In this document: one piece after another, positions 49,009 through 64,000 of the stretch
Numbering within the stretch: the stretch's first letter is position 1
Layout: every line of letters begins with the position of its first letter
Origin: Desulfurivibrio sp.
GTDB taxonomy: Bacteria > Desulfobacterota > Desulfobulbia > Desulfobulbales > SURF-16
DNA: 64,000 bases
Assembly: GCA_003605035.1 (NCBI GenBank)
Contig: QZKJ01000118.1
Coordinates: 18,304 to 82,303, forward strand
Direction: 5' to 3'
Notes under the pieces: generated by a model
The model's input: only the letters and a program-made list of their open reading frames with translations
Database searches by the model: none
Told to the model about the DNA's origin: nothing
Position numbers and translations under genes: made by a program

Positions 49009-50201
49009 TGTCCGCCCCGACCACGCTTGATGATCTTATCGGCATTGAACACTGCAAACTCGGCTTTTATCAGGAACTCCAGCGCAAGGTGGAGGAGCTG
49101 AAGCACTCCAACCGTGAGCTTGAAAAGAAACGCCAGGAATTCAAGGGACTGCTGGACGCCATCACCGATCTGATGGTGGTGCTCTCCGAAGACCTCAGGA
49201 TTCAATCCGTCAACCACGTGTTTAAGGAATGGTATCCTGATGCCGACCCGAAAGGGGAATTCTGCTATAAATTTTTCCGTGACAGGAGCACCCCCTGTGA
49301 GAACTGCCCGGTGATCAAGGCTCTGGATCGTGATGAGATATGCAAGGATTCCTGCATCCATAAGGTGAAAGATAAATTCCGCCATTTTGAGTTGATTGCC
49401 TCACCGCTGAAGACGAGTCCCACCGGCGAGCGCAACGTGCTGCTTTTTAAACGGGATGTCACGGTGGAAAAGGAATTCCAGGCCCAGTTTTATCAGGCAG
49501 AGAAAATGGCCACCGTCGGGGCCCTGGCCGCCGGCGTGGCCCATGAAATAAACAACCCGCTTACCGCCATCAGCGGCTTTGCCGAAGGGCTGCGGCGCCG
49601 GCTCGGCCGTATTCACGACCAGGTGGATGAAGACCTGTACGGCGATTTTCAGGAATATACCGATACCATTATCAAGGAATGCCTGCGCTGCCGGGATATC
49701 GTCCGCACGCTGCTCACCTTCAGCCGGCCCATCGCCTCCAGTCTGTGCCCGGTGAATCTCAATGACTGCATCAACGACACCCTGTTCATCCTGAAGCATC
49801 ACTTCAAGGAGCAGCATAATGTCATCGTCAAGATCGAGTTGCATGACGAGCTGCCGCTGATCATGGGGGACGAATCGCAGCTCAAGCAGGTCATCATCAA
49901 CCTGCTGACCAATGCCCTGGATGCCAGCGGGGAAGGCGGCACCATCCTGATCAAAACCTATCCGGCGGAATCCGGCGGGGTAGCCATGCTTGTTGAGGAT
50001 TCCGGCTGCGGCATCCCGCTGGAACTGCAGGATAAGCTGTTTGAGCCCTTTTTTACCACCAAGCCGGTGGGTAAAGGAATCGGCATCGGCCTGTCCACCT
50101 GCTACACCATCGTGAAAAATCACAATGGCAGGATCAGTATGACCAGCGAGGTGGGCAAGGGCACGACATTCTGTATACATCTACCCGGAATTTCAGCATA
50201 A
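49008..50201 (+). CDS. PAS-domain sensor histidine kinase
   Basis: H-box AHEINNPL, N-box LLTNALDA, G-boxes DSGCGIP / GKGIGIGL. ATG at 49008 overlaps the adh stop (TGATG). Confidence 0.88.
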   Translation: MSAPTTLDDLIGIEHCKLGFYQELQRKVEELKHSNRELEKKRQEFKGLLDAITDLMVVLSEDLRIQSVNHVFKEWYPDADPKGEFCYKFFRDRSTPCENCPVIKALDRDEICKDSCIHKVKDKFRHFELIASPLKTSPTGERNVLLFKRDVTVEKEFQAQFYQAEKMATVGALAAGVAHEINNPLTAISGFAEGLRRRLGRIHDQVDEDLYGDFQEYTDTIIKECLRCRDIVRTLLTFSRPIASSLCPVNLNDCINDTLFILKHHFKEQHNVIVKIELHDELPLIMGDESQLKQVIINLLTNALDASGEGGTILIKTYPAESGGVAMLVEDSGCGIPLELQDKLFEPFFTTKPVGKGIGIGLSTCYTIVKNHNGRISMTSEVGKGTTFCIHLPGISA

Positions 50202-51538
50202 TGGTAAACGAAAAATACCCTGTTCTGGTTATTGACGACGAAGAGCCGATCAGAAGACTGCTGCAGAAGGAACTGGCCAACTCCGGGCGGGAGATCTTTA
50301 CTGCCGCCACGGCGGCGGAAGCAATGGCCCTGGTGCGGAGCCGCTGGTTCGATGTCATTATCATGGACCTGCGGCTGCCCGACACCACCAATCTTGATCT
50401 GCTGATCAAGGTGCGGGACTCCATTCCCCATACCGAGGTAATCATGATCACCGGCCACGGGGACATTGACAGTGCCGTGGAGGCCATGAAACTCGGGGCC
50501 TGCGACTTTATTCCCAAGCCGTTCAATCTCGACCGGCTTGATCTGGTGGTGGAAAAGGCCCACCAGCGGGTGCGCCTGTCCCGGGAAAACATGATTCTGC
50601 GCCATAAGGCCGGTTATGACCAGGGGACGGTGAAATTTATCGGCAACTCCATGGCCATCCGCAATATCCAGTTTCTGGTGGATAAGGTGGCGCCGGCCAA
50701 TATTCCGGTGCTCATCACCGGGGAGTCGGGCGTAGGCAAGGACGTGGTGGCCCATGCCATCCATGATCGTTCCGGCCGGGCGGGCAATGAGCTGATCATC
50801 AAAAACTGCGCCTCTCTGCAGAAGGATCTTGCCCGCAGCGAGCTTTTCGGCCATGTGAAGGGTTCGTTTACCGGCGCCGACGAATCCAGGGAAGGGCTCA
50901 TGTCCTACGCCCACGAGAGCACCCTGTTCCTTGACGAGATCGGCGAACTGCCCCTGGAGGTGCAGGCCTCCCTGTTGCGCATGCTGGAGACCCAGACCTA
51001 CCGCCGGGTCGGTGAAAAGGATGAACGGCGGGTGGATATCCGCTTCCTGTTCGCCACCAACCGCGACCTGGCCGATGAGGTCAAAAAAGGCCGCTTCAAC
51101 GAGGCGTTCTATCATCGCATCAATGTCTTTAACATTGATATTCCTCCTTTGCGTGAACGTAAGGAGGATCTCCCCCTGCTGGTTGATTATTTTCTCACCT
51201 CGCTCAGCCCTGATTCCACCACCTACCGGATGGTGCAGAACGCCATGGACTGCGTGCTCCGCTATGACTGGCCGGGCAACATCCGGGAGTTGCGCAACGT
51301 TATCGAGCGCAGCATTATTCTTGCTGAAAACGGCATCATCACCGAACGTTGTCTGCCCCGCGAACTGGTGGTGAGCGCGGAAACTTCCGAGGCGAGCATC
51401 ACCCTTGAGTCGGTGGAAAAAAAGCACATCCTCAAGATGCTGAATTTCTATAACGGCAACCGGCGCAAGGCCGCTGAGGCCCTTGGCATCAGCCGCAAAA
51501 CCCTGTATCGCAAGATGAGCCAGTTCAACGTCGAGTGA
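50201..51538 (+). CDS. sigma54-dependent response regulator (NtrC family: REC-AAA+-Fis HTH)
   Basis: 445 aa. Receiver IIMDLRLPD, Walker A GESGVGKD, GSFTGA (GAFTGA variant), and C-terminal HTH AAEALGISRKTLYRKM. Confidence 0.92.
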   Translation: MVNEKYPVLVIDDEEPIRRLLQKELANSGREIFTAATAAEAMALVRSRWFDVIIMDLRLPDTTNLDLLIKVRDSIPHTEVIMITGHGDIDSAVEAMKLGACDFIPKPFNLDRLDLVVEKAHQRVRLSRENMILRHKAGYDQGTVKFIGNSMAIRNIQFLVDKVAPANIPVLITGESGVGKDVVAHAIHDRSGRAGNELIIKNCASLQKDLARSELFGHVKGSFTGADESREGLMSYAHESTLFLDEIGELPLEVQASLLRMLETQTYRRVGEKDERRVDIRFLFATNRDLADEVKKGRFNEAFYHRINVFNIDIPPLRERKEDLPLLVDYFLTSLSPDSTTYRMVQNAMDCVLRYDWPGNIRELRNVIERSIILAENGIITERCLPRELVVSAETSEASITLESVEKKHILKMLNFYNGNRRKAAEALGISRKTLYRKMSQFNVE

Positions 51539-51798: not shown

Positions 51799-51852
51799 GA
51801 GCTTTTCTTAATAAATTAATGCAATATGCTGATATTACGTAATTTATTTACA

Positions 51853-51868
51853 TGGCACCAATATTGCC
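51853..51868 (+). promoter_or_regulatory. sigma54 promoter
   Basis: TGGCAC-CAATA-TTGCC, a near-perfect match to TGGCAC-N5-TTGCW. It lies 59 nt upstream of the ATG at 51927. Confidence 0.75.
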
Positions 51869-51926
51869 ATTGCAGGGGTGGACACCAGTACCAAAAACTC
51901 ACAGTTTAACCAATGGGAGTCCACCG

Positions 51927-52400
51927 ATGGGATTTGAATTTATTGCTGACGAAATTTTTGAGATGGCGGAACAGGTCGAGAAAAATGGCGCGAAATTTTA
52001 CCGAATGGCTGCCGAGAAGGTGAACGGCGATGAGAGAAAGATTCTGCTCGAACTGGCCGGCATGGAAGATTGCCACGGGATGAAATTCGCCGATTTCAGA
52101 AAGGCCCTGGCGCTTTGTGACAAAAACTCAACTACTTTTGATCCGGATGGGGAGACCGCCCTGCATCTCAAGACCCTTTCCGAGAGCAGAGGTTTTTTTG
52201 AAAAAGATCTCGATATCTCAGACAAGGAAGCAATTTTGAAATCCGCCATTACGGTAGGGAAAGAATCCATTATCTTTTATCTCGGACTGAAAGACCTGGT
52301 GGACTGCAAAGCCGGCAAAGAGAAAATTGATGCCATCATCAATGAGGAGATGCGACATCTCAAGCTGCTGAACGGCAGGCTCCACTCCTCTCTGCGCTAG
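51927..52400 (+). CDS. ferritin-like / rubrerythrin-family diiron protein (no rubredoxin domain)
   Basis: 157 aa. Helical ExxH-type pairs (ELAGMEDCHG, INEEMRHLK). The start was moved to 51927 (GGGAG upstream) because the track start at 51852 overlaps the sigma54 promoter. Confidence 0.7.
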   Translation: MGFEFIADEIFEMAEQVEKNGAKFYRMAAEKVNGDERKILLELAGMEDCHGMKFADFRKALALCDKNSTTFDPDGETALHLKTLSESRGFFEKDLDISDKEAILKSAITVGKESIIFYLGLKDLVDCKAGKEKIDAIINEEMRHLKLLNGRLHSSLR

Positions 52401-53371: not shown

Positions 53372-56089
53372 ATGATCAGAAAAAAACTATACGTCAATGG
53401 TATAGAAAAAAATCTTATCGTGGATGCTGATGAAAGTCTGGCGGAAGTTCTGCGCAAAAGGCTGAGACTCACCGGCACCAAGATCGGCTGCGGCAAGGCC
53501 CAGTGTGGCGCCTGCAATGTCATCATGGACGGCAAGCTGACCAGGTCCTGCGTGACCAAGATGTCACGGGTGGCTGATGGCGCCGCCGTTACCACCATTG
53601 AGGGTATCGGCACCCCGGACGACCTTCATGCCCTGCAGATGGCCTGGATGGTGCATGGCGGCGCCCAGTGCGGCTTCTGTACCCCCGGTTTCATCGTTTC
53701 CGCCAAGGCCCTGCTTGATGCCAATGCCGACCCTTCCCGTGAAGAGGTGCGTGACTGGTTTCAGAAAAACCGCAATGCCTGCCGCTGCACGGGATACAAG
53801 CAGCTGGTTGATGCGGTGCAGGATGCCGCCAGGGTGCTGAAAGGCGAAATCAGCCTGAAAGACCTGGCCTACAAGATTCCGGCGGACGGCAAGGTGTTCG
53901 GCACCCATCAGCCCCGGCCGAGCGCTGCCGCCAAGGTTACCGGCACTTGGGATTTCGGAGCGGACCGCGGCCTGCAGCTTCCCGATGAGACCCTGCAGCT
54001 GGCCCTGGTGCAGGCTGAGGTTTCCCACGCCAATATCCTCTCCGTGGATACCAGCGAGGCGGAAAAAATGCCCGGCGTCTTCAAGGTGGTCACCGCCAGG
54101 GACATCAAGGGCAAGAACCGCATCACCGGGCTGATCACCTTCCCCACCAACAAGGGTGACGGCTGGGACCGCCCCATCCTCTGCGATGAAAAGGTCTTCC
54201 AGTTCGGCGATGCAATTGCCATCGTCTGCGCCGATACCGAAAAGCACGCCAAAGAGGCGGCTAAGATGGTCAAGGTGCAGTTGGAAGAGCTGCCGGCCTA
54301 CATGAGCGCGCCGGCGGCCATGGAAGAGGATGCCCTGGAAATCCATCCCGGCACTCCGAACGTCTATTTTATCCAGAAGATCGCCAAGGGTGAGGAGACC
54401 GCCCCTATTTTCGACAAGGCGGAGGTCGTCATCGAGGGCAACTATTATGTCGGCCGCCAACCCCATATGCCCATTGAACCTGATGTCGGTTTTGCCTATT
54501 ACAACGACGACAACAAGCTGGTCATCCATTCCAAATCCATCGGCGTCCATCTCCATCTCTATATGATCGCCCCGGGGCTCGGCGTGGCGCCGGAAGACCT
54601 GATCCTGGTGCAGAACAACACCGGCGGCACCTTCGGCTACAAGTTCAGCCCCACCATGGAGGCCCTGGTCGGCGCCGCGGCCATTGCCACCGGCCGTCCC
54701 GTATTTCTCTGCTACGATTATTTCCAGCAGCAGACCTATACCGGCAAACGCTCGCCTTTCTTCATGAATGTCAAGATGGCCACGGACAAGAACGGCATGA
54801 TCAAGGCCATGGAAACCGACTGGACCGTTGACCACGGACCCTATTCGGAATTCGGCGACCTGCTCACCCTGCGCGGCGCCCAGTTCATCGGCGCGGGCTA
54901 TGACATCAGAAATATCCGCGGCGAAGGCCGCACGGTGTGTACCAACCATGCCTGGGGTTCCGCCTTCCGCGGCTACGGCTCGCCCCAGTCCGAGTTCGCC
55001 TCCGAGGTTTTGATGGACGAACTGGCGGAAAAACTCGGCATGGATCCCCTGGAACTGCGCTACAAGAACTGTTACCGCAAGGGCGCCACCAGCCCCACCG
55101 GCCAGGACCCCGAGGTCTATTCCCTGCCGGAGATGCTCGATATCCTGCGTCCCAAATATGAGGCGGCCAAAAAGAAGGTTGCCGCCACCTCCACCGATGC
55201 GGTAAAACGCGGGGTAGGCATCGCTCTGGGCGTTTACGGTTGCGGTCTGGACGGCCCGGATACGGCGGAAGTGGATGTTGAACTGAACGCCGACGGCACG
55301 GTAACTGTCTACAACTGCTGGGAAGACCATGGCCAGGGAGCTGACATGGGAAGCCTGGGCACCGCCCATGAGGCCTTAAAACCCCTGGGAATTTCCGGCG
55401 ATCGCATTAAACTGGTGATGAACGACACGAGCATCTGCCCCAACTCCGGGCCTGCCGGCGGCAGCCGCAGCCAGGTGGTGGTCGGTCAGGCCATCCGGGT
55501 CGCCTGCGAGGAGCTGATCAAGGCCATGAAAAAGGCTGACGGTTCCTTCCGTACCTGCGAGGAAATGAAGGCGGAAAACATCCCCACCAGGGTGAACGGC
55601 AAATGGTCGGCCCCGGCCGGGGCCTGCGATGAAAACGGCCAGGGCAATCCCTTCTGCTGCTACATGTACGGTATGTTCATGGCCGAGGTAGCCGTGGAAG
55701 TGGCCACCGGCAAGACCACGGTTGAAAAAATGACCTGCGTGGCCGATGTCGGCAAGATCAACAACAAACTGGTGGTGGACGGTCAGCTTTACGGCGGTAT
55801 GGCCCAGGCCATCGGTCTTGCCCTGACCGAGGATTTCGAGGACATCAAAAAGCACTCAACCCTGGTTGGCGCGGGATTTCCTTATATCAAACAGATCCCT
55901 GACGACATGGAGCTGTTCTATGTGGAAACCCCGCGTCCCGACGGTCCCTTCGGCGCCTCGGGTGTCGGCGAATTACCGCTGACCTGCCCCCATGCCGCCG
56001 TGATCAACGGTATTTATCATGCCTGTGGCGCCCGAGTCAGAAACCTGCCGGCCCTGCCGGAAAAGGTGCTGGCCGCCATGAAGAAGTAA
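53372..56089 (+). CDS. mop: molybdopterin (MCD)-dependent aldehyde oxidoreductase, Desulfovibrio gigas Mop type
   Basis: 905 aa single chain. N-terminal plant-type [2Fe-2S] GCGKAQCGACNVIMDG, second [2Fe-2S] CGFCTPGF...CRCTGY, then a xanthine-oxidase-family Mo domain with no FAD domain. Length and architecture match D. gigas MOP (about 907 aa). Confidence 0.92.
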   Translation: MIRKKLYVNGIEKNLIVDADESLAEVLRKRLRLTGTKIGCGKAQCGACNVIMDGKLTRSCVTKMSRVADGAAVTTIEGIGTPDDLHALQMAWMVHGGAQCGFCTPGFIVSAKALLDANADPSREEVRDWFQKNRNACRCTGYKQLVDAVQDAARVLKGEISLKDLAYKIPADGKVFGTHQPRPSAAAKVTGTWDFGADRGLQLPDETLQLALVQAEVSHANILSVDTSEAEKMPGVFKVVTARDIKGKNRITGLITFPTNKGDGWDRPILCDEKVFQFGDAIAIVCADTEKHAKEAAKMVKVQLEELPAYMSAPAAMEEDALEIHPGTPNVYFIQKIAKGEETAPIFDKAEVVIEGNYYVGRQPHMPIEPDVGFAYYNDDNKLVIHSKSIGVHLHLYMIAPGLGVAPEDLILVQNNTGGTFGYKFSPTMEALVGAAAIATGRPVFLCYDYFQQQTYTGKRSPFFMNVKMATDKNGMIKAMETDWTVDHGPYSEFGDLLTLRGAQFIGAGYDIRNIRGEGRTVCTNHAWGSAFRGYGSPQSEFASEVLMDELAEKLGMDPLELRYKNCYRKGATSPTGQDPEVYSLPEMLDILRPKYEAAKKKVAATSTDAVKRGVGIALGVYGCGLDGPDTAEVDVELNADGTVTVYNCWEDHGQGADMGSLGTAHEALKPLGISGDRIKLVMNDTSICPNSGPAGGSRSQVVVGQAIRVACEELIKAMKKADGSFRTCEEMKAENIPTRVNGKWSAPAGACDENGQGNPFCCYMYGMFMAEVAVEVATGKTTVEKMTCVADVGKINNKLVVDGQLYGGMAQAIGLALTEDFEDIKKHSTLVGAGFPYIKQIPDDMELFYVETPRPDGPFGASGVGELPLTCPHAAVINGIYHACGARVRNLPALPEKVLAAMKK

Positions 56090-56188: not shown

Positions 56189-58489
56189 ATGGAGCAACAG
56201 CAACTCCGCAAGCTCGAAGCGACCTGCATACAGGAGGAATCACCCCAGTGCTCGGCCGCCTGCCCGATCCATATTGATGTCCGGGCCTTCATGGCCTGTC
56301 TGGCCGGGAAGGACTGGCGGGGCGCCAGGCGCGTGCTTGACCGGACCATGCCTTTTGCCGACATTGTCGGCCGCATCTGCGACGAACCCTGCCGCCAGGC
56401 CTGCAAGCGGTCCGAGATCGGCGATCCCCTGGCGGTTCACCGCCTGGAAAGATTCTGCGTGACCACTCAGCCCATGGTGCTCAGGTCACCCCGGCTGCCT
56501 GCCAAGGGAGGCAGCGTGGCGGTGATCGGTTCCGGCCTGGCCGCCATGACCGCAGCCCTTGACCTGGCCCGCAAGGGCCGCACCGCGGTGATGCTGACCA
56601 GTGATGAGCAGATCGGTGGCTCCCTGCGGCAGTATGCGGAGGAGATGCTGCCGGCCCAGGTGCTGGCCGTCGGCGTGGAGACCCTCTACTCCTATGGCGT
56701 CATCCTGCACTTCGGCTGCTCGCTCAACCAGGAATTTCTTGCAACGGTCAGACAGGATCATGATGCCGTTTTTCTGGACAGGGACTGCCGGGGCCTTGCC
56801 ACCCTGGCCGTTGATTGCACCCAGCCGGACCCCGTGACTCTTGCCATCGGCCTGGATGGCTGTTTTGCCGGCGGCGGCAGCACGGCAAACGGTTTTTCCG
56901 TCATGAAACAGGTGGAGGACGGCCGCCGGGCCGCTCTATCCATCGAACGCTATCTGCAGAAGGTATCACTTACCGCCCAGCGGGAACGGGAGGGCGTCTG
57001 CCCGACCCGGCTGTTTACCCAAATCGCCGGCATCCCGCCCCTCAGCGAGGTGCTGCCAGCCGACCCGGCCGCAGGCTATACCGCCCGGGAGGCCGTAGCG
57101 GAAGCGGCTCGCTGCATCCAGTGCGAGTGCATGGAATGCGTCAAGCAGTGCGCCTTCCTGCAGGAATTCAACGATTACCCCAAACGGCTGGTACGCAAAA
57201 TATATAACAACGAGGCCATTGTCCAGGGCACCCGCACCGCCAACAAAATGATCAACTCCTGCATGCTCTGCGGCCAGTGCACGGTGATCTGCCCCCACGA
57301 CTTCCCTCTGAACACGGTCTGCCGCACCACCAGGGCCAACATGGTGGCAAGCGCCACCATGCCGCCCTCGGCCCATGAGTTTGCCCTGCAGGACATGGAG
57401 TTCAGCCTCGGTACGTTCGCCGCCCTGGCCCGCCACCAGCCTGGCCGGGACAGCAGCCGCCTCCTCTTCTTTCCCGGCTGCCAGCTGGCCGGCTCCGCGC
57501 CACAGACGGTGGAACAGACCTACCTGCATCTGACCCGTCATCTGGACGGCGGGGTAGGGCTGATGCTTGGCTGCTGCGGCATTCCCGCCCACTGGTCCGG
57601 CCGGCAGGAGCTTTTCCACCGGACCATGCAGACCCTGGTGGCCGAAGTCGGCAGACTGGGCGATCCCCTCATTGTCACTGCCTGTTCCAGTTGCTATACC
57701 GTGTTCAAGGAATTTGCCCCGCAGCTTACGGTGCAGTCCCTCTGGCAGCTGCTGGACAAGATGGAACTCCCTGCTAATGCAGCGGCCCCGCCGCAGCCCA
57801 TGGCCATTCATGACCCCTGCACGGTCAGGCATGAGCCGCAGATACGCGCAAGCGTGCGTAATATCATAAAAAAAATCGGCATCAGCACCGAGGAACATCC
57901 CTATGCCGGCGAACTGACCGACTGCTGCGGCTACGGCGGACTGATGCAGTTCGCCAATGTGCCGCTAGGCGAAAAGGCCGCCCGCGCCAAGGCCCGGCGC
58001 AGCGAGTGCGACGGGCTGGCCTACTGCGCCATGTGCCGGGACAATATGGCCGCCACCGGCCGGCGTGTCGCCCATCTGCTTGACTATCTCTTCCCCGCGG
58101 CAAGCCGGCAGGACCCCCTGCTGCGGCCCAACCCCGGTTTTTCAGGACGCCATGAAAACCGGGCCAGACTCAAGCAGCATCTGCTTACCACCCTTTGGCA
58201 GGAGGAACCGCCGATGAACCCCGCTCACAAAGAAATCAAGCTGGTTATCGCCCCGCAGCTCATGGAGCTGCTGGACAAAAGACATATTCTGGAGGACGAC
58301 ATCCGGAAGGTCATTGGGCAGGCCGAGCAGAGCGGCAGACGGCTGGTTGATCCGGAAAACGGTCACTTTCTGGCCAGTTACCGGCCGGTGCGGGTGACCT
58401 ACTGGGTGGAGTATCAGCCGGGCCGGCAGGGATTTATCGTCCACAACGCCTACAGTCATCGCATGATCCTGCCGGGAGAAGCCAAATGA
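56189..58489 (+). CDS. fusion protein: GltD-like NAD(P)H/FAD oxidoreductase + 2x[4Fe-4S] + two CCG (HdrD/GlcF-like) domains + C-terminal extension
   Basis: 766 aa. N-terminal Cys cluster CSAACPIH...CDEPCRQAC, dinucleotide fold VAVIGSGLAAMTAALDLARKG, CIQCECMECVKQC + CMLCGQCTVICP, CCG-type segments FFPGCQ...GCCG and IHDPC...TDCCGYGG, then CDGLAYCAMCRD and a ~100-aa tail. Confidence 0.85.
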   Translation: MEQQQLRKLEATCIQEESPQCSAACPIHIDVRAFMACLAGKDWRGARRVLDRTMPFADIVGRICDEPCRQACKRSEIGDPLAVHRLERFCVTTQPMVLRSPRLPAKGGSVAVIGSGLAAMTAALDLARKGRTAVMLTSDEQIGGSLRQYAEEMLPAQVLAVGVETLYSYGVILHFGCSLNQEFLATVRQDHDAVFLDRDCRGLATLAVDCTQPDPVTLAIGLDGCFAGGGSTANGFSVMKQVEDGRRAALSIERYLQKVSLTAQREREGVCPTRLFTQIAGIPPLSEVLPADPAAGYTAREAVAEAARCIQCECMECVKQCAFLQEFNDYPKRLVRKIYNNEAIVQGTRTANKMINSCMLCGQCTVICPHDFPLNTVCRTTRANMVASATMPPSAHEFALQDMEFSLGTFAALARHQPGRDSSRLLFFPGCQLAGSAPQTVEQTYLHLTRHLDGGVGLMLGCCGIPAHWSGRQELFHRTMQTLVAEVGRLGDPLIVTACSSCYTVFKEFAPQLTVQSLWQLLDKMELPANAAAPPQPMAIHDPCTVRHEPQIRASVRNIIKKIGISTEEHPYAGELTDCCGYGGLMQFANVPLGEKAARAKARRSECDGLAYCAMCRDNMAATGRRVAHLLDYLFPAASRQDPLLRPNPGFSGRHENRARLKQHLLTTLWQEEPPMNPAHKEIKLVIAPQLMELLDKRHILEDDIRKVIGQAEQSGRRLVDPENGHFLASYRPVRVTYWVEYQPGRQGFIVHNAYSHRMILPGEAK

Positions 58490-58695
58490 GCACATTTTCC
58501 TTCATAAGCGAGACAGCCTGGCGCTGCGCCAGTTGCAATAAGGAACTGCATCCCCGCAAGGTGAATGTGGAATATATGGGCTCGGTGTTCAATGTTGAGC
58601 TGATGGTCTGTCCTGTCTGCGGCTTTGTGTTGATTCCCGAGAATCTGGCCCTCGGCAAGATGCTCGAGGTCGAGCAGCTGCTGGAAGACAAATGA
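58486..58695 (+). CDS. 69-aa four-Cys zinc-ribbon/rubredoxin-like protein
   Basis: CASC...CPVC pairs. ATGA overlap with the upstream gene. Confidence 0.7.
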   Translation: MSTFSFISETAWRCASCNKELHPRKVNVEYMGSVFNVELMVCPVCGFVLIPENLALGKMLEVEQLLEDK

Positions 58696-58705
58696 GCCAA
58701 ACCCC

Positions 58706-59440
58706 ATGACCAGCGCAACCTTGACACATACCCCTCTTCTCTGTGAACAGCAGGAACTGCGGCAGCTCACCGGCGACACACTGCGGCCCGGGGGGCTGGC
58801 GCTGACCAGCAGGGCCATGCAGTACTGCGCTCTGCCTGCCCGCAGCACCATTCTCGATGTGGGCTGCGGGTATGGCCGGACCATGGCCCTGCTTGCTGCG
58901 CAGTTTGCCCTGGCCCCGACCGGGCTGGATCCCTCGCCAGCCATGCTGCGGCAGGCGGCCTGCAGCTGTCCCGGCCTGCCGCTGCTGCAGGCCACGGCCG
59001 CCGCCATCCCCGTCCGCAACGGTTTTTTTGCTGCCCTGATCTCGGAATGCGTGCTGTCGCTGGCCGGCAATATGCCGGCCTGCCTGCGGGAAATGGGGCG
59101 GGTGCTGGCGCCGGGCGGCAAACTGGTGCTGACCGACATCTACGCCCGCAAACCAGACTCATTGCCTGCCGCCCGGCAGGGTGCGATCCGCAGCTGCTTT
59201 CACGGCGCGGTCTGCCTGGAAACCCTGGAGACATCCCTGCGGGACGCCGGCTTTACCATCCGGCTCTTTGAGGACCACACCGCCATGCTGCGGCAGCTGG
59301 CCGGGCAGATCATCTTCACTTATGGCAGCCTGGCCGCCTTCTGGCAGCTGTTCATGGGCGCGGAGCAGGCCGCCTGCACCTGCAGTTCCCTGGCCACGGC
59401 CAAGCCCGGTTATTACCTGCTCATCGCCGAAAAGGAGTAA
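58706..59440 (+). CDS. class I SAM-dependent methyltransferase
   Basis: 244 aa. Motif I ILDVGCGYGRTMALLA and post-I/II segments PGGKLVLTD. Confidence 0.85.
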   Translation: MTSATLTHTPLLCEQQELRQLTGDTLRPGGLALTSRAMQYCALPARSTILDVGCGYGRTMALLAAQFALAPTGLDPSPAMLRQAACSCPGLPLLQATAAAIPVRNGFFAALISECVLSLAGNMPACLREMGRVLAPGGKLVLTDIYARKPDSLPAARQGAIRSCFHGAVCLETLETSLRDAGFTIRLFEDHTAMLRQLAGQIIFTYGSLAAFWQLFMGAEQAACTCSSLATAKPGYYLLIAEKE

Positions 59441-59445
59441 GCGCC

Positions 59446-59901
59446 ATGGATGACACCGCACTCCGCATCATGCAGCTCAGCTCCCAGGGGCTCTGCTGCA
59501 GCCAGATTCTGATGAAGCTGGCCCTTGAAGACATGGGTGAGGAAAACCTTGCCCTGGTGCGCGCCATGTCCGGCCTCTGCCAGGGGCTGGGAGCAGGGGA
59601 GATGTGCGGGGCGGCCAGCGGCGCGGCCTGCGTCATCGCCCTCTATGCGGCCAAGGGGGACGGCAGTGAAGAGGAATCGCCGGATTATCAGCTGATGCTG
59701 GCCGATTTCACGGCATGGTTCACCGGCACAGCCCCGGGCAGGTGGGGAGGAATCAGATGCGATGAGATCATCCCCGCCGGGGCGGCCATGGAAATGCGCA
59801 AGTGCGGCGATATCATTGTCGAAAGTCGCAATAAGGTTCTGGAAATCCTTGCCGCCTACGGTGTTGACCCGAGTGTCTCCAGAGAGCTGCGCCATGGCTG
59901 A
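59446..59901 (+). CDS. C_GCAxxG_C_C-family putative redox-active protein
   Basis: 151 aa. N-terminal CCSQIL, central GEMCGAASGAACVI and a distal Cys pair (RCDEI...KCGDI), matching the family's namesake Cys pattern. Confidence 0.8.
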   Translation: MDDTALRIMQLSSQGLCCSQILMKLALEDMGEENLALVRAMSGLCQGLGAGEMCGAASGAACVIALYAAKGDGSEEESPDYQLMLADFTAWFTGTAPGRWGGIRCDEIIPAGAAMEMRKCGDIIVESRNKVLEILAAYGVDPSVSRELRHG

Positions 59902-61282
59902 TGGTACCCGTACAGATATCCTGGCCCGGACGGAGAGCGTCTGTCCGACCTGCCTGAGGCGTCTGCCGGCAATGCGGGAAAAGCAGGGCGAGGATGTCTA
60001 TCTGGTGAAAAAATGCCCGGAGCACGGAGAATTCAGGACCATCATCTGGCGGGGGCCGCTGCCTTTTTCCTCCTGGCAGCGACCGAAAAAGGCCTCCCCG
60101 CCCAGGCAGACCTTCACCGATACGGAAAAGGGCTGCCCCTTTGACTGCGGGCTCTGCCCGGACCACGGCCAGCATACCTGTACGGCCCTGATCGAGGTCA
60201 CTTCCCGCTGCAATCTGCGCTGCCAGGTTTGTTTTGCCGCTGCCGGCGATCACGGGGCTGCTGATCCGCCGCTTGAGCGGATCGCTTTCTACTATGACCG
60301 GCTGCTGGCGGCCAGCGGCCCCTGCAATATCCAATTGTCCGGCGGCGAGCCCACGGTACGTGAAGACCTGGCCGAGATCATCCGCTTAGGCCGGGACAAA
60401 GGCTTTTCCTTTCTGCAGCTCAACACCAACGGCATCCGTCTGGCCGAGGAGGAAGGCTATGCCAGGAGTCTGAAGGCGGCCGGCCTGTCATCCGTCTTTC
60501 TGCAGTTTGACGGCATCAGCGACGAAGTGCACCAGGCCCTGCGGGGACGGGCCCTGGCGGCAGTCAAGGAAAGGGCACTGGTCAACTGCGGCTTTGCCGG
60601 CCTCGGCGTGGTGCTGGTGCCTACCATCATGCCAGGGGTCAACTCCGGGGAAATCGGCAGCATCATCAACTATGCGGCCCGCTTTTCCCCCACGGTGCGG
60701 GGCGTGCATTTTCAACCGGTGAGCTATTTCGGCCGCTACCCGCATCAGCCCCATAACAGCGCCCGCATCACCCTGCCGGAGATATTGCTGTTGCTGGAAG
60801 AACAGACGAGGGGCAAGGTGGCGGCCAGTCTCTTCGCCCCGCCGGCCTGTGAACACGCCCTCTGCTCCTTTCATGCCAATTTTCTGGTGCAGGACAATTA
60901 CCGGCTGCAGGGGATCACCTCCTGGCAGCAGACCTGCTGTGCAGCCGCGGAAGCCAACGTTGAGATCCCCTCAGCCGTGGAGGGCCGGGAGAAAAACATC
61001 TCTTTTACCGCCAGGCAATGGGCCGCCCCCAAGGCCTGCGTTTGCCCGCCCACCATGGTGCAGGAAAATGAGGATGAGCTGGATTACTTTCTCAGAAGGG
61101 CCAAGACCCATACCTTTTCCATCTCGGGCATGGCCTTTCAGGATGCCTGGAATCTGGACCTGGAACGGCTGCAGGGGTGCTGCATCCATGTGGTTTCGCC
61201 GGAGGGGAAGGTGATCCCCTTCTGCGCCTATAACCTGACATCAAGCGAGGGCCGGGCCCTGCACCGGACTTGGGACGTCTGA
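59894..61282 (+). CDS. radical SAM protein with N-terminal zinc-ribbon and CxxxCxxCxxH pre-motif
   Basis: Start at MADGTRTD (ATG at 59894, 8-nt overlap with the upstream gene). CPTC...CPEHGEF, GCPFDCGLCPDHGQHTC, and the radical SAM triad SRCNLRCQVCFA. Confidence 0.85.
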   Translation: MADGTRTDILARTESVCPTCLRRLPAMREKQGEDVYLVKKCPEHGEFRTIIWRGPLPFSSWQRPKKASPPRQTFTDTEKGCPFDCGLCPDHGQHTCTALIEVTSRCNLRCQVCFAAAGDHGAADPPLERIAFYYDRLLAASGPCNIQLSGGEPTVREDLAEIIRLGRDKGFSFLQLNTNGIRLAEEEGYARSLKAAGLSSVFLQFDGISDEVHQALRGRALAAVKERALVNCGFAGLGVVLVPTIMPGVNSGEIGSIINYAARFSPTVRGVHFQPVSYFGRYPHQPHNSARITLPEILLLLEEQTRGKVAASLFAPPACEHALCSFHANFLVQDNYRLQGITSWQQTCCAAAEANVEIPSAVEGREKNISFTARQWAAPKACVCPPTMVQENEDELDYFLRRAKTHTFSISGMAFQDAWNLDLERLQGCCIHVVSPEGKVIPFCAYNLTSSEGRALHRTWDV

Positions 61283-62619
61283 TGAAAAGGACAACGGTTG
61301 AAGAGATCCTGCTCAGCAGCATGAAGGCCGCAGCAGGGCAGCTGCCTGACCGGGCCGCCATCGAAAGGTACCAGTTCGGCAGACTGCGGCAGACCATCGC
61401 GCATGCCGCGGCAAAGAGCCCCTTTTACCGGGACAGACTGGCGGGAGTCAGGCCGGCGGAGATCACGGACCACGGCTCCCTGTCCCGTTTGCCCTTTACC
61501 AGCGAAGATGATCTGCGCCGCCGGGGCCAGCAGATGCTCTGCGTCAGCCAGGATGAGGTGGCCCGCATCATCACCATGCAGAGTTCCGGCACCACCGGCC
61601 CGCCCAAGCGGCTGTTTTTCAGCGAGGAGGACCTGGAGCGCACCCTTGATTTTTTCCATCACGGCATGCGCGCCCTGGTCAGGCCGGGGCAGAAGGTGCT
61701 GATCCTGCTACCCGGCGCCACCCCGGACTCCACCGGCGATCTGCTGGCCCGCGGCCTGGCGAGGATGGAGGTGGCCAGCCGCATCTACGGGCTGGTGGCT
61801 GATCCGCTGCAGGCGGCCGCGGAGGTGTTTGCCGAAGGTTTTGACGCCCTGGTCGGCTTTCCGGTGCAGGTGCTGGCCCTGTCCCGCACCCCGGCCGGGC
61901 AGTCCGTGCCGGCCGGACGGATCAAATCCGTGCTGCTCTGCTCGGATTACATCCCGCGGACCGTGTGCGACGAAGTATCCGCCGCCTGGCGCTGCCGGGT
62001 CTTCAGCCATTACGGCACCGTGGAAAGCGGGCTGGGTGGCGGAGTGGAGTGCGAAGCCCTGTGCGGCTGTCATCTGCGGGAAGCGGACCTGCTCTTTGAA
62101 GTGGTCTGCCCGCGGACCGGCGTCGCCCTGCCCCCGGGTCAGTGGGGTGAACTCGTCTTTTCCACCCTGAGCCGCCGGGCCATGCCTCTGATCCGCTACC
62201 GGACCGGCGATCGGGGCCGTCTGCTTGCCGGGCCCTGCAGGTGCGGCAGCCCGCTTGCCAGGCTGGACAAGGTGCGCGGCAGGATCAGCCAGGTGCGGCA
62301 ACTGGCCAACGGTCAGACCCTCTCCCTGGCCCTGCTGGATGAACTGCTGCTCGCCATTCCCGGGGTGCTGGATTTTCAGGCAGTGCTCGACCGGGACAAG
62401 GATGGCGAGCGACTCACGGTCCGTCTGACCACTCTTCCGGCAAAGCGGGACCAGTCGTTGCAGCAGGCTGCCCTGCAGCTCAAGGAGCTTGCCCGACTGC
62501 GGGATTTGCAGATTGGTATGGCGGCAAACCCTGGCGGCCTCATCAACCGAGGTAAACGCATAATCGAAGACAACAGAGGAAAAATCAGCCATGAAACAGC
62601 TTATCAGGCAGCTTTGTGA
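61282..62619 (+). CDS. PaaK/coenzyme-F390-synthetase-like adenylate-forming (AMP-dependent) ligase
   Basis: About 445 aa. Phosphate-binding loop SSGTTGPPKR, YGTVESG, and YRTGDRG near the C-terminal hinge. ATG at 61282 shares one nt with the radical SAM stop. Confidence 0.85.
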   Translation: MKRTTVEEILLSSMKAAAGQLPDRAAIERYQFGRLRQTIAHAAAKSPFYRDRLAGVRPAEITDHGSLSRLPFTSEDDLRRRGQQMLCVSQDEVARIITMQSSGTTGPPKRLFFSEEDLERTLDFFHHGMRALVRPGQKVLILLPGATPDSTGDLLARGLARMEVASRIYGLVADPLQAAAEVFAEGFDALVGFPVQVLALSRTPAGQSVPAGRIKSVLLCSDYIPRTVCDEVSAAWRCRVFSHYGTVESGLGGGVECEALCGCHLREADLLFEVVCPRTGVALPPGQWGELVFSTLSRRAMPLIRYRTGDRGRLLAGPCRCGSPLARLDKVRGRISQVRQLANGQTLSLALLDELLLAIPGVLDFQAVLDRDKDGERLTVRLTTLPAKRDQSLQQAALQLKELARLRDLQIGMAANPGGLINRGKRIIEDNRGKISHETAYQAAL

Positions 62620-63637
62620 CATATTGGCCGGCGGTGAAGACCTGGTGCTGGCCACCGTTTCGAGCAAGAACGGCTCCGCTCCCCGCATGGCCGGCGCCCG
62701 CATGATCGTCCGGCAGGACGGCCGTATTGCCGGCACCATCGGCGGCGGCAAGGTCGAGGCCGTGGCCATTGCCGAGTCGGTGCAGGCCTTTGCCCATAAA
62801 AACTCCGGCCGGTGCTTTTTTGATCTGACCAACGCCGATGCCGCCGGCACGGACATGATCTGCGGCGGCACCATGGAAATATTCCTGGATTACATTGCCG
62901 CGGGGCCGGCCAATCTGCAGGTGTTCTCGACCCTGCTGACCGCCCTTGACAGCGGCCGCCGGGTCTCCTTTGTCAGCAAACTGAATGACCGGGACGGTGG
63001 CGGTGCCCGCTTTGTCATTGCCGATGGCGGCAAGACAAACTATAGCCAGGCCCCGGAGGCGCTGCTGTCCGCCGTCAAAAAACTCCGCCTCTCCTCCTCG
63101 GCCCCTTCGGTGGTCACCCATGACAACGAGGAGTATCTGGTTTCCTACTTTGCCATCCCCGGCGACCTCTTTCTGCTGGGCGCCGGTCATGTGGCGGCCT
63201 GTACCGCCGAGGCCGCGGCCAGGGTTGGCTTTAAGGTCATCGTCATGGATGACCGGTCCGAATTCGCCAACCGGCAGCGCTTCCCCATGGCGGACGAGGT
63301 GGTGGTGCTTGACTCCTTTGCCGATTGTTTTCAGGGGTATGACATCAGCCACGACAGCTACCTGGTCATCGTCACCAGGGGACACATGCATGACCGGGAC
63401 GTGCTGGAGCAGGCGCTCTCCACCAACGCCGGCTATGTGGGCATGATCGGCAGCCGCAAAAAGCGTGATGCCATTTACACCAATCTGCTGGCCAAGGGCA
63501 CGGCGCCTGAGCAGCTGGGCCGGGTTCATTGTCCCATCGGCCTGGCCATCGAGGCGGACACCCCGGAGGAGATCGCCGTCAGCATCGTCGGTGAACTGAT
63601 CCAGCAGCGCGCCAGGGGGCAGAACCGTGGAAAGTGA
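62591..63637 (+). CDS. xdhC: XdhC/CoxI-family molybdenum-cofactor insertion chaperone
   Basis: 348 aa. N-terminal XdhC_CoxI region (LATVSSKNGSAPRMAGARMIV) and C-terminal Rossmann-like region (LFLLGAGHVA, VTRGHMHD, YVGMIGSRKK). Confidence 0.85.
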   Translation: MKQLIRQLCDILAGGEDLVLATVSSKNGSAPRMAGARMIVRQDGRIAGTIGGGKVEAVAIAESVQAFAHKNSGRCFFDLTNADAAGTDMICGGTMEIFLDYIAAGPANLQVFSTLLTALDSGRRVSFVSKLNDRDGGGARFVIADGGKTNYSQAPEALLSAVKKLRLSSSAPSVVTHDNEEYLVSYFAIPGDLFLLGAGHVAACTAEAAARVGFKVIVMDDRSEFANRQRFPMADEVVVLDSFADCFQGYDISHDSYLVIVTRGHMHDRDVLEQALSTNAGYVGMIGSRKKRDAIYTNLLAKGTAPEQLGRVHCPIGLAIEADTPEEIAVSIVGELIQQRARGQNRGK

Positions 63638-64000
63638 GCTTGCCGCCATCATCCCCGCCGCCGGGCTCTCCTCCAGGATGGGAGAGCTGAAGGCCCTGCT
63701 CCCCCTGGGCCAGACCACTGTGCTGGGCCATCTTATCGATCTCTTCCACCGCTGCGGCATCCGGGATGTTATCGTCGTCACCGGCCACCGGGCCGGGGAA
63801 GTCGGCCAGGCTGCCCTGGCGGCCGGCGCCCGGGTGGTGCACAATGGCGACTATGAACAGGGCATGTTTTCCTCGATCAAAAGCGGCATCCGGGCCCTGG
63901 CGTCGGAAACCAGGGGCTTTTTTCTGCTGCCGGTGGATATCCCGCTGATCCGTCCGGGCACCATCAGGCTGCTGGCCGAGGCCTTCACCTCCTTCCCGCT
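63627..64000 (+). CDS. MobA/MocA-like NTP transferase (probable molybdenum cofactor cytidylyltransferase), 3'-truncated by window end
   Basis: Not in the ORF track. GTG at 63627 opens a frame with no stop up to position 64000. Translation VESELAAIIPAAGLSSRMGELKALLPLG...FFLLPVDIPLI carries the MobA-like N-terminal signature. 11-nt overlap with xdhC. Confidence 0.8.
   Translation, partial: MESELAAIIPAAGLSSRMGELKALLPLGQTTVLGHLIDLFHRCGIRDVIVVTGHRAGEVGQAALAAGARVVHNGDYEQGMFSSIKSGIRALASETRGFFLLPVDIPLIRPGTIRLLAEAFTSFP

Follow-up and report, generated by a model that had tools for sequence, protein, structure and literature searches.

Among the genes of a molybdenum enzyme, the 64,000-nucleotide stretch of Desulfurivibrio sp. 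DNA analysed here (the window) carries a gene for a radical SAM protein, and the question it raises is what such a protein does there and on what it acts. The earlier note on this DNA had picked out the open reading frame at 59894-61282 with three Cys/His motifs, saw in it a likeness to MJ0619 and Tes, and proposed a pterin-directed enzyme giving rise to a chemically modified molybdopterin. Translation bears out the reading frame and its motifs (462 aa), and the likeness is well founded, but the proposed role in modifying molybdopterin fares poorly, and the practical result for the window is mostly corrective.

By its sequence, the ORF is an ordinary full-length, cysteine-form member of TrsS, a family that is already catalogued. 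The trsS gene (59894..61282, + strand, as are all features described below), the equivalent of DVU_1554, matches the NCBIfam profile NF045646, 'radical SAM (seleno)protein TrsS', with 680.8 bits against a cut-off of 490 (E 6e-205), and it does so end to end, with protein residues 12-458 covering model positions 2-441 of 441; the match was repeated in the genome search, and the product is 97% identical to a protein named TrsS at NCBI. The closest solved structure by sequence is 7TOL, the GDGT-MAS/Tes protein MJ0619 (phmmer, E 9e-92), and an AF2 model of TrsS (pLDDT 88.3) likewise has GDGT-MAS (7TOM/7TOL) as its best PDB match in Foldseek, with TM 0.79. A maximum likelihood tree of 47 rows places TrsS in a clade of its own (support 100/99), apart from Tes and other Tes-like groups, with a Tes-like clade supported at 100/100. 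TrsS is a bacterial family, sister to Tes/GDGT-MAS, which makes tetraether lipids.

The protein opens with an N-terminal rubredoxin-like zinc ribbon (residues 10-53; 59921..60052) recognised by PF23545 (Zn_ribbon_HMPTM, E 4e-20), in which C17-P-T-C20 and C41-P-E-H44 lie 20 residues apart; the earlier note had both Cys/His motifs right but gave their spacing as 23 residues, whereas the 20 found here is the same as in GDGT-MAS. Next come the predicted N-terminal auxiliary [4Fe-4S] motif (C81, C85, C88, H91, then H94 and C96; 60131..60181), identified by alignment to GDGT-MAS and reading G80-CPFDCGLCPDHGQHTC-96, and the radical SAM core (residues 100-260; 60191..60673; PF04055, E 5e-18) with its CX3CX2C triad C106/C110/C113 (60209-60232; C106-NLRCQVC-113), which is invariant in TrsS alignments. 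The E values for the zinc-ribbon and radical SAM domains, together with the full-length match to NF045646, place the motif match far beyond chance. H94 and C96 are TrsS-specific, with C96 invariant in 76 TrsS sequences and missing from true Tes, and C232 and C430 are likewise extra invariant cysteines of TrsS. A TrsS-specific middle region (residues 318-400; 60845..61093), which replaces the second lipid pocket of Tes, contains C319, H321, C324, H327 and C348-C349; C324 is universal across all Tes-like groups compared, the trio C319/C348/C349 is found only in the Mo-enzyme-linked TrsS subclade, and loop 346-353 is the sole low-confidence internal segment of the AF2 model. [quoted passage not shown] Conservation of the predicted metal ligands extends across the 76 TrsS sequences and each Tes-like group in the comparison.

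The name TrsS is credited to Haft & Tolstoy (2025, mSystems 10:e0141724) by a review (PMC13188914), which reports some members as selenoproteins and gives WP_327020591.1 as an example. The '(seleno)' in the name marks selenocysteine as optional for membership, and the copy in the window is of the cysteine form throughout, with no in-frame TGA in its trsS gene. Nor was an in-frame selenocysteine TGA present in the 80 loci of our synteny sample, in the 40 TrsS genes that a sample of 401 genomes from the phylum yielded, or in the 28 from 401 Bacillota, roughly 150 other TrsS genes being inspected in all. The single TGA seen, in genome G697, lies at the extreme C-terminal end with no aligned cysteine and is probably just a stop codon. 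Four short, N-truncated database entries (P0004, P0062, P0085 and P0088) proved to have miscalled starts and intact cysteines, and among the split TrsS genes that we checked, retrieved with the C-terminal 113 residues as query, we found frameshifts in long-read assemblies (L126 and L128) and an N-gap in a scaffold (L129).

The operon in which trsS lies is the already curated gene set DVU_1551 to DVU_1559, for which the models NF045645 and NF045663 to NF045669 all score above cut-off; it has ten genes, of which trsS is the fifth after mop. Pfam and NCBIfam both support the neighbours that the earlier note had named, a Mop-type molybdenum enzyme, XdhC, a MocA-like protein and a class I SAM methyltransferase. 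The molybdopterin-dependent aldehyde oxidoreductase gene mop (53372..56089; DVU_1559 equivalent; NF045668, 1709 bits) matches the solved enzymes of D. desulfuricans (1DGJ, 1477 bits) and D. gigas (1SIJ/1VLB, 1465 bits); for about 40 years the xanthine oxidase family has had a structural model in Mop from Desulfovibrio. The mop gene is followed by a fusion of three parts, a GltD-like flavoprotein, a dicluster ferredoxin and an HdrD-like CCG module (56189..58489; DVU_1558 family; NF045663, 1020.7 bits; Pfam Fer4_20, Fer4_17 and CCG), and by a 69-aa four-Cys protein of the DVU_1557 family (58486..58695; NF045645, 105.6 bits; PF24292), which shows no similarity to the C-terminal tail of the fusion protein; NCBIfam names this family 'redox protein' and Pfam DUF7479. 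The methyltransferase (58706..59440; DVU_1556 family; NF045667, 233.6 bits) has ArsM-type enzymes and selenoprotein methyltransferase fusions among its nearest named relatives, with arsenite methyltransferase models as the next matches, and the C_GCAxxG_C_C protein gene (59446..59901; DVU_1555 family; NF045669, 159.1 bits) overlaps the start of trsS by 8 nt. Downstream of trsS are a PaaK/F390-synthetase-like AMP-dependent ligase (61270..62619; DVU_1553 family; NF045666, 457.7 bits), which may in fact begin a few codons further in, an XdhC-family aldehyde oxidoreductase maturation factor (62591..63637; DVU_1552 equivalent; NF045664, 424.4 bits), and a MocA-like NTP transferase that also has an HD domain (63627..64000; DVU_1551 family) and whose gene continues past the end of the window. 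In full (locus L100), this gene encodes 383 aa and gives 438.1 bits with NF045665, and it is followed by one for a 200-aa CobC-like histidine phosphatase (His_Phos_1).

This arrangement is syntenic across six or more phyla. Our sample of 80 genome loci, drawn from Thermodesulfobacteriota, Chloroflexota, Bacillota, Actinomycetota, Campylobacterota and Acidobacteriota and counted only where the flank was long enough, has the ligase near TrsS at all 77 loci (directly after trsS at 73), the C_GCAxxG_C_C protein at 74 of 75, the methyltransferase at 71 of 74, the flavo-iron-sulfur protein at 69 of 70 and Mop at 58 of 60. TrsS occurs in 40 of the 401 genomes sampled from the phylum and in 28 of the 401 from Bacillota, placing the gene set in roughly one in ten sampled genomes of the two phyla. 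The association with Mop is tight in one direction, as 29 of the 30 Mop-bearing genomes among the 401 of the phylum also have TrsS, but 9-10 of the 40 TrsS-bearing genomes in the same sample are without Mop. The TrsS copies at such Mop-less loci keep the HdrD-like protein, the methyltransferase and the ligase, with no XdhC or MocA nearby, and their neighbours are enzymes of the 2-hydroxyacyl-CoA-dehydratase/BcrAD type, an acyl-CoA dehydrogenase, an additional acyl-CoA synthetase or a TRAP transporter, a setting of organic acids and CoA esters. At two further loci (L125 and L128) TrsS and the ligase sit beside a molybdoenzyme of the DMSO-reductase family, with an XdhC_C gene also present at L128.

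Most likely, TrsS works in a six-gene module of redox, methyltransferase and ligase functions. TrsS family identity combined with radical chemistry of the Tes type on a substrate other than a lipid is, as a whole, the best explanation, and one we consider to have about an even chance of being right. We infer, with slightly less than even confidence, Tes-like SAM cleavage, hydrogen abstraction and handling by the C-terminal cluster, acting on a smaller substrate that is neither lipid nor pterin and driven by electrons from Mop. After reductive cleavage of SAM, TrsS would abstract hydrogen from a carbon that is not activated, and would handle the resulting substrate radical at its C-terminal cluster, as in Tes. 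Going by gene adjacency alone, the substrate would most likely be a carboxylic acid activated by the always-adjacent PaaK-like ligase, and the same molecule would be acted on by the ArsM-like methyltransferase and by the proteins of thiol/disulfide type (HdrD-like CCG and C_GCAxxG_C_C). Adjacency is also the sole pointer to aldehyde oxidation by Mop as the putative source of low-potential electrons for the radical SAM cluster; these would pass from Mop to the flavo-iron-sulfur fusion, on to the 69-aa four-Cys protein and then into TrsS by way of its surface rubredoxin and N-terminal cluster. XdhC, MocA-HD and the histidine phosphatase would serve the molybdopterin cytosine dinucleotide (MCD) cofactor of Mop itself. 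We know of no substrate, product or phenotype for any TrsS, and a literature search for DVU_1553 to DVU_1557 returned no mention, with DVU_1558 and DVU_1559 appearing only in proteomic tables. Dde_2460 of D. alaskensis G20, which is called an aldehyde:ferredoxin oxidoreductase and is at best a candidate for the Mop type, has fitness defects on ethanol and choline. Once worked out, the TrsS reaction should offer both new radical SAM chemistry and an explanation of a widespread gene set.

An alternative explanation is that TrsS matures or activates a molybdoenzyme without modifying its pterin, for example through chemistry in the Mo ligand sphere, through sulfur or selenium delivery by C319/C348/C349, or by modifying Mop or its flavo-iron-sulfur partner. 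The tight co-occurrence with Mop fits such a role, as does the report of selenoproteins within the family (PMC13188914), and D. gigas Mop is itself unusual in having no sulfido ligand and being activated by dithionite plus sulfide (PMC10223205). The loci with DMSO-reductase-family enzymes, L128 with an XdhC_C gene as well, and the confinement of the Cys trio to the Mo-linked subclade keep a molybdoenzyme-directed role alive. However, the trio maps to a single phylogenetic split and thus reflects one event rather than repeated co-variation, the same methyltransferase, ligase and HdrD-like protein accompany TrsS in the sister subclade that has no Mop, and no known Moco step requires a Tes-type enzyme; we consider the explanation unlikely. 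Its specific form, in which the Mo-linked subclade would use C319 and C348-C349, next to C324, to act on the Mo centre or on its ligands while Mop-type enzymes mature, again with no pterin methylation, is distinctly unlikely. If true, it would amount to an undescribed radical SAM step in molybdoenzyme assembly and might bear on why Desulfovibrio Mop is missing the usual sulfido ligand.

TrsS could also form a carbon-heteroatom bond: a cluster sulfide (or Se or As) would capture the substrate radical, and the ArsM-like enzyme would then methylate the product, in what would be a split methylthiolation or an organo-chalcogen or metalloid pathway. The precedent is the substrate C-S(cluster) intermediate in the chemistry of Tes/GDGT-MAS, an enzyme that has the non-standard cluster ligand usual among radical SAM enzymes that insert sulfur (PMC9433317), and the idea draws further on the loss in TrsS of Tyr459 and the second substrate pocket, on the arsenite methyltransferases and selenoprotein methyltransferase fusions to which the methyltransferase is related, and on the conserved thiol/disulfide-type partners. 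Such an argument is purely analogical, and no product of this kind is known from Desulfovibrio, Clostridium or Anaerolineae; the pathway also overlaps our preferred reading of non-lipid chemistry of the Tes type, and the two are not strictly alternatives. We regard it as quite improbable.

The proposal of the earlier note, a pterin-directed radical SAM methylase that supplies Mop with a chemically modified molybdopterin, draws on the homology to MJ0619, on the placing of TrsS in one operon with Mop, XdhC and MocA, and on its presence in nearly all Mop-bearing genomes. TrsS does share its zinc ribbon and motif order with the 'class D' 7,8-dihydro-6-hydroxymethylpterin dimethyltransferase (HMPTM), having the HMPTM-type ribbon, then CxxxCxxCxxH, then CX3CX2C. 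That label, however, is the former annotation of MJ0619, since reassigned as a lipid synthase (PMC9433317), and because the class D pterin activity was not reproducible, Lloyd et al. (2022) having failed to corroborate it, there is no validated pterin-directed member for TrsS to join; the structure of MJ0619, moreover, excludes a bulky hydrophilic substrate (PMC9433317). The label persists in the domain name of PF23545 and in some JGI annotations. Native D. gigas Mop at 1.28 A contains standard MCD (PMC10223205), yet the D. gigas genome (G832), whose Mop matches the D. gigas PDB chain over residues 1-907 with 2116.9 bits, has the complete cassette with TrsS intact (631.8 bits), 7 kb downstream of mop. 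With the MJ0619 activity uncorroborated, an ordinary MCD in D. gigas, TrsS copies in genomes without Mop, and XdhC and MocA accounted for by Mop's own need for MCD, the proposal is weak, and we judge it very unlikely. We found nothing in this analysis to indicate that TrsS methylates or alters the molybdenum cofactor, although it may have a transient or Mo-ligand-level role in maturation. The pterin-methylase label in Pfam and JGI names is unfit for inferring a modified molybdopterin.

That TrsS is itself a bacterial synthase of tetraether or membrane-spanning lipids is suggested by the fold and metal sites it has in common with GDGT-MAS and by the proposal that bacterial Tes homologues make brGDGTs (PMC8941075), but it is extremely unlikely, given that TrsS scores 360.3 bits against a cut-off of 450 on the Tes model NF045702 and covers only model positions 2-339 of 486, that it has Val in place of Tyr459 and appears to be missing the amphipathic lipid pocket, that genuine bacterial Tes equivalogs of the same phylum (484-576 bits, Tyr kept) form a separate clade, and that the operon is without lipid genes. 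The earlier note had also named placement in an unrelated clade, such as peptide or anaerobic sulfatase maturases, as an outcome that would count against its proposal; this is not the case, as all models for SPASM/twitch maturases (anSME, PqqE, sactipeptide) give only 32-61 bits against cut-offs of 265-725. MoaA, the GTP 3',8-cyclase of Moco biosynthesis, is the next-best PDB match (E about 1e-12, TM 0.4-0.6), by way of the radical SAM core; as a candidate paralogue it was rejected at 70 bits against a cut-off of 284, and its GTP-binding C-terminal cluster architecture is absent from TrsS.

The known system closest to TrsS is Tes/GDGT-MAS, at 34-36% identity. The structure of MJ0619 has a narrow hydrophobic lipid tunnel and the protein has tetraether synthase activity (Lloyd et al. 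2022, PMC9433317); its zinc-ribbon motif C9X2C12X20C33X2H36 is a mononuclear Fe site, and surface clusters for electron entry have been described (PMC9433317). All four Tes metallocofactor sites are matched in TrsS, ligand by ligand: C17/C20/C41/H44 align with C9/C12/C33/H36 at the rubredoxin-like site, C81/C85/C88/H91 with C73/C77/C80 and a His at the N-terminal [4Fe-4S] cluster, C106/C110/C113 are kept as in Tes at the radical SAM cluster, and the C-terminal [4Fe-4S] cluster would be held by C324/C429/C444 with M413, which corresponds to the labile ligand Met439 of Tes. TrsS has V433 (V, I or T across the family) at the position of the strictly conserved Tyr459, which the bacterial Tes group keeps, and where Tes has an amphipathic second lipid pocket of ~115 residues TrsS has a Cys/His-rich insert of 83 residues, ~30 shorter, such that residues 318-400 gave no phmmer alignment with 7TOL residues 332-446. 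The genomic setting differs as well, TrsS being found in a molybdoenzyme operon rather than a lipid context. In Tes this machinery couples inert carbons by way of an iron-sulfur cluster, linking lipid chains tail to tail between C(sp3) atoms, and in TrsS the same four-cofactor machinery most likely serves numerous anaerobes for a second purpose that does not involve lipids.

The open reading frame at 59894-61282 (+) encodes 462 residues, and its translation contains an N-terminal C17-P-T-C20, x20, C41-P-E-H44 motif, a second motif G80-CPFDCGLCPDHGQHTC-96, and the radical SAM triad C106-x3-C110-x2-C113. From these motifs the earlier note proposed a pterin-methylase or tetraether-synthase type of architecture; all three are present, although the spacing given as x23 was a miscount for x20, which is also that of the C9X2C12X20C33X2H36 site in the tetraether synthase Tes (GDGT-MAS, the MJ0619 protein; PMC9433317). 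Pfam matches to PF23545 ('HMPTM N-terminal zinc ribbon', E 4e-20) and to the Radical_SAM domain bear out this architecture and indicate that the cysteine pattern is no accident. Because the start at 59894 overlaps the preceding stop codon by 8 nt and the match to NCBIfam model NF045646 begins at residue 12, a longer frame of 506 codons is unnecessary.

NF045646, 'radical SAM (seleno)protein TrsS', matches the protein end to end at 680.8 bits (curated cut-off 490 bits); against the Tes model NF045702 it reaches 360.3 bits, short of the 450-bit cut-off, and only the first 339 of the 486 model positions are covered. MoaA and every SPASM-type maturase model in NCBIfam score far under their cut-offs, and these assignments were discarded. 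The sole strong sequence match among solved structures is GDGT-MAS/MJ0619 (7TOL/7TOM, E 9e-92), with an alignment spanning TrsS residues 11-317 and 401-448. An AlphaFold model based on 76 family members (pLDDT 88.3, pTM 0.90, with one weak internal segment at 346-353) likewise finds 7TOM and 7TOL by Foldseek (E about 1e-43, TM 0.79), with MoaA second at about 0.4. The nearest database protein, 97% identical and from a Thermodesulfobacteriota MAG, is already called TrsS at NCBI. By these comparisons the gene belongs, as an ordinary member, to a family already named and modelled, and included in a 2026 selenoprotein review (PMC13188914).

Broken copies of the gene are found elsewhere. A split TrsS at L126:8700-9000 was considered as a selenocysteine codon and rejected, as it reflects a compensating frameshift pair across HFQPVSYFGRY in a long-read assembly; split TrsS calls in public data should accordingly not be read as evidence for Sec. 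A Logan contig (L127, 2108-6776) contains a shortened cluster with a split Mop-like gene and DUF7479, in which TrsS is reduced to its C-terminal 142 residues and the ligase to a 260-residue fragment; as 24 contigs encode the identical 142-residue product, the arrangement resembles a decayed or rearranged copy, one with a wide occurrence in samples.

From 53372 to the window end, each gene is matched by the models of one neighbourhood, already curated gene by gene in NCBIfam. These genes encode a Mop-type aldehyde oxidoreductase (from 53372; NF045668, 1709 bits, and 1465-1477 bits against the D. gigas and D. desulfuricans crystal structures), a fused GltD-like flavoprotein, dicluster ferredoxin and HdrD-like CCG module (NF045663), a 69-residue four-Cys protein (NF045645), an ArsM-like class I methyltransferase (NF045667), a C_GCAxxG_C_C protein (NF045669), TrsS itself, a PaaK/F390-synthetase-like ligase (NF045666), XdhC (NF045664) and a MocA-HD nucleotidyltransferase (NF045665), with the last operon gene, past the window end, encoding a CobC-like histidine phosphatase. 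Immediately after it on the opposite strand (L100:1857-2712 (-), about 83750-84610 of source contig G000:C6, just beyond the window) lie a DsrC/TusE-like gene and a neelaredoxin-type gene, the latter a desulfoferrodoxin ferrous-iron domain. Upstream of mop, a rubrerythrin/ferritin-like gene (51852-52400, +) and an NtrC-type sigma-54 response regulator (50201-51538, +) fit the sigma-54 control of the region that had been suggested previously.

The same gene order recurs among 80 loci from one-genome-per-species contigs, in Desulfobulbales, Desulfovibrionaceae, Syntrophobacteria and Geobacter relatives, and also in Chloroflexota, Bacillota, Actinomycetota, Campylobacterota and Acidobacteriota. 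Where the flank was long enough for a gene to be scored, the ligase accompanies TrsS in all 77 loci, directly adjacent in 73; the corresponding counts are 58/60 for Mop, 69/70 for the flavo-FeS protein, 71/74 for the methyltransferase, 74/75 for the CGA protein, 47/71 for XdhC and 39/67 for the MocA-like gene. One genome with a normal Mop has a second Mop-like gene (G367:C3:56171-58696; 1056 bits, just below cut-off) with one in-frame TGA; this gene may be a pseudogene or else a paralogue containing selenocysteine.

TrsS modules also exist without Mop, an observation that we add here. Profile searches of 401 genomes, sampled evenly across the phylum, recovered TrsS in 40 and the Mop equivalog in 30, of which 29 have TrsS. 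Eleven TrsS-bearing genomes are without Mop above cut-off, but in one of these the Mop gene is truncated by a contig end and in another TrsS is paired with a different molybdoenzyme. The remaining nine loci (L116 in G118:C33, L121 in G371:C84, L117-L120 and L122-L124), whose TrsS subclade scores 533-578 bits on NF045646, above the cut-off, keep the HdrD-like protein, methyltransferase and ligase, together with a small protein that matches the tail of the flavo-FeS fusion; the stretches retrieved around them showed neither XdhC nor MocA genes. Their neighbourhoods are organic-acid and CoA-ester contexts, with two or three HGD-D subunits, a BcrAD-type activase and an acyl-CoA dehydrogenase at L116 and L121 (the HGD-D/BcrAD-type proteins being ATP-driven radical enzymes), a pair of NarI-like membrane subunit and HdrD-like protein at L118, and a PLP decarboxylase with transporters at L122.

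The alignments establish the predicted machinery of TrsS, a Tes fold with three [4Fe-4S] sites and one iron site. Both N-terminal metal sites of Tes lie on the protein surface, and its C-terminal cluster makes a transient bond from a cluster sulfur to the substrate carbon (PMC9433317). We tentatively favor a metabolite-directed role, to which we give slightly under an even chance. TrsS would abstract hydrogen from an unactivated carbon and handle the radical at its C-terminal cluster. Its substrate would be single and smaller, because the Tes tyrosine and second lipid pocket are lost, and, since the ligase is the most constant neighbour, it is probably a carboxylic acid that is processed in adenylate or thioester form; this molecule may also be acted on by the ArsM-like methyltransferase and by the proteins of thiol/disulfide type. 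Very low-potential electrons would pass from aldehyde oxidation at Mop, which has no flavin domain of its own (PMC10223205), to the GltD/HdrD-like fusion, and onward by way of this and the 69-residue four-Cys protein to TrsS. Loci without Mop retain the HdrD-like half of the fusion and also lack its GltD-like half, in keeping with a role of that GltD-like half as the adaptor to Mop.

A non-pterin role in molybdoenzyme maturation is unlikely, but the link is kept alive by two observations. At L125 (G221:C94:304-7984) and on a metagenomic contig (L128, 3595-11716) TrsS and a PaaK-like ligase adjoin a DMSO-reductase-family molybdopterin enzyme instead of Mop, and L128 additionally has a LysR regulator and an XdhC_C gene. 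The second is a subclade-specific cysteine trio reported here, C319/C348/C349, found in at least 90% of 76 Mo-linked TrsS sequences, partly in the two DMSO-reductase-linked copies, and in none of the nine Mop-less copies. The trio should not be over-read, because Mop-less and Mo-linked TrsS form sister subclades (support 98/95 and 94/98), so that its distribution represents one evolutionary split rather than repeated co-variation. Within the metabolite-directed reading, a variant in which TrsS forms carbon-sulfur or carbon-metalloid bonds is rather improbable.

The earlier note's proposal that a pterin-directed TrsS yields a modified molybdopterin is unsupported and very improbable. MJ0619 was formerly annotated as a pterin methylase, but pterin methylation was not corroborated by Lloyd et al.; the enzyme is a tetraether/macrocyclic archaeol synthase whose hydrophobic, 5.8 A channel would hardly admit a bulky hydrophilic substrate (PMC9433317). 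We add an argument from D. gigas, whose native Mop structure at 1.28 A contains ordinary MCD (PMC10223205). One Desulfovibrionaceae genome (G832) encodes a 100% match to a 44-residue N-terminal peptide of the D. gigas Mop structure, and its complete Mop gene reaches 2116.9 bits (residues 1-907) with the D. gigas PDB chain versus 1437 bits with the D. desulfuricans chain, which identifies the genome as D. gigas or a strain nearly identical to it. Downstream of mop it carries the whole cassette with an uninterrupted TrsS (631.8 bits), so that a stably methylated or otherwise decorated pterin in D. gigas Mop is unlikely, an argument that is blind to transient modification and draws on cultures in which cassette expression is undocumented. 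TrsS modules with no Mop, XdhC or MocA detected alongside also count against pterin modification.

A lipid role is scarcely credible; TrsS shares the Tes fold but lacks the stretch that forms the second, amphipathic lipid pocket, its residues 318-400 being unaligned there and about 30 residues shorter. Residues were matched by sequence alignment to 7TOL with the numbering of Lloyd et al. 2022 (PMC9433317), the PDB chain numbering of GDGT-MAS being the native number + 20. The rubredoxin-like iron site of Tes corresponds to C17/C20/C41/H44, the N-terminal auxiliary cluster to C81/C85/C88 with H91, the radical SAM cluster to C106/C110/C113, and Met439, the labile ligand of the C-terminal cluster, to M413, which is invariant in 76 TrsS sequences. 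C324, C429 and C444, the sole further cysteines kept in every Tes-like group compared, are likely C-terminal cluster ligands. TrsS also has invariant or near-invariant extra cysteines (C96, C232 and C430), to which the subclade of the window protein adds C319, C348 and C349.

Other Tes-like proteins were encountered. A separate group of 448-495 residues (family f48; L130-L133 in G150, G297, G083 and G045) has His at the Met439-equivalent and Glu at the Tyr459 position, and is named by neither model because it falls under both cut-offs (TrsS 362-377 bits, Tes 303-308 bits). A tandem pair of divergent genes (L143, G251:C42:7300-10700; 492 and 461 residues) has very long branches, and both members are also under both family cut-offs.

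Tyr459 of Tes, which lies 4.2 A from the substrate carbon and is reported to be strictly conserved among about 1,000 homologues from archaea (PMC9433317), is replaced by V433 in the window TrsS and by V, I or T across the family, whereas true Tes equivalogs in the same phylum (484-576 bits on NF045702, 537-562 residues) retain the tyrosine. In a maximum-likelihood tree of 47 sequences the bacterial Tes clade (100/100) stands apart from the TrsS clade (100/99). With two Tes hallmarks absent and the clades separate, alignment and tree make TrsS a sister family to Tes rather than a part of it; our addition to this comparison is the contrast at the residue level, in which the equivalent of Met439 is kept and that of Tyr459 is lost.
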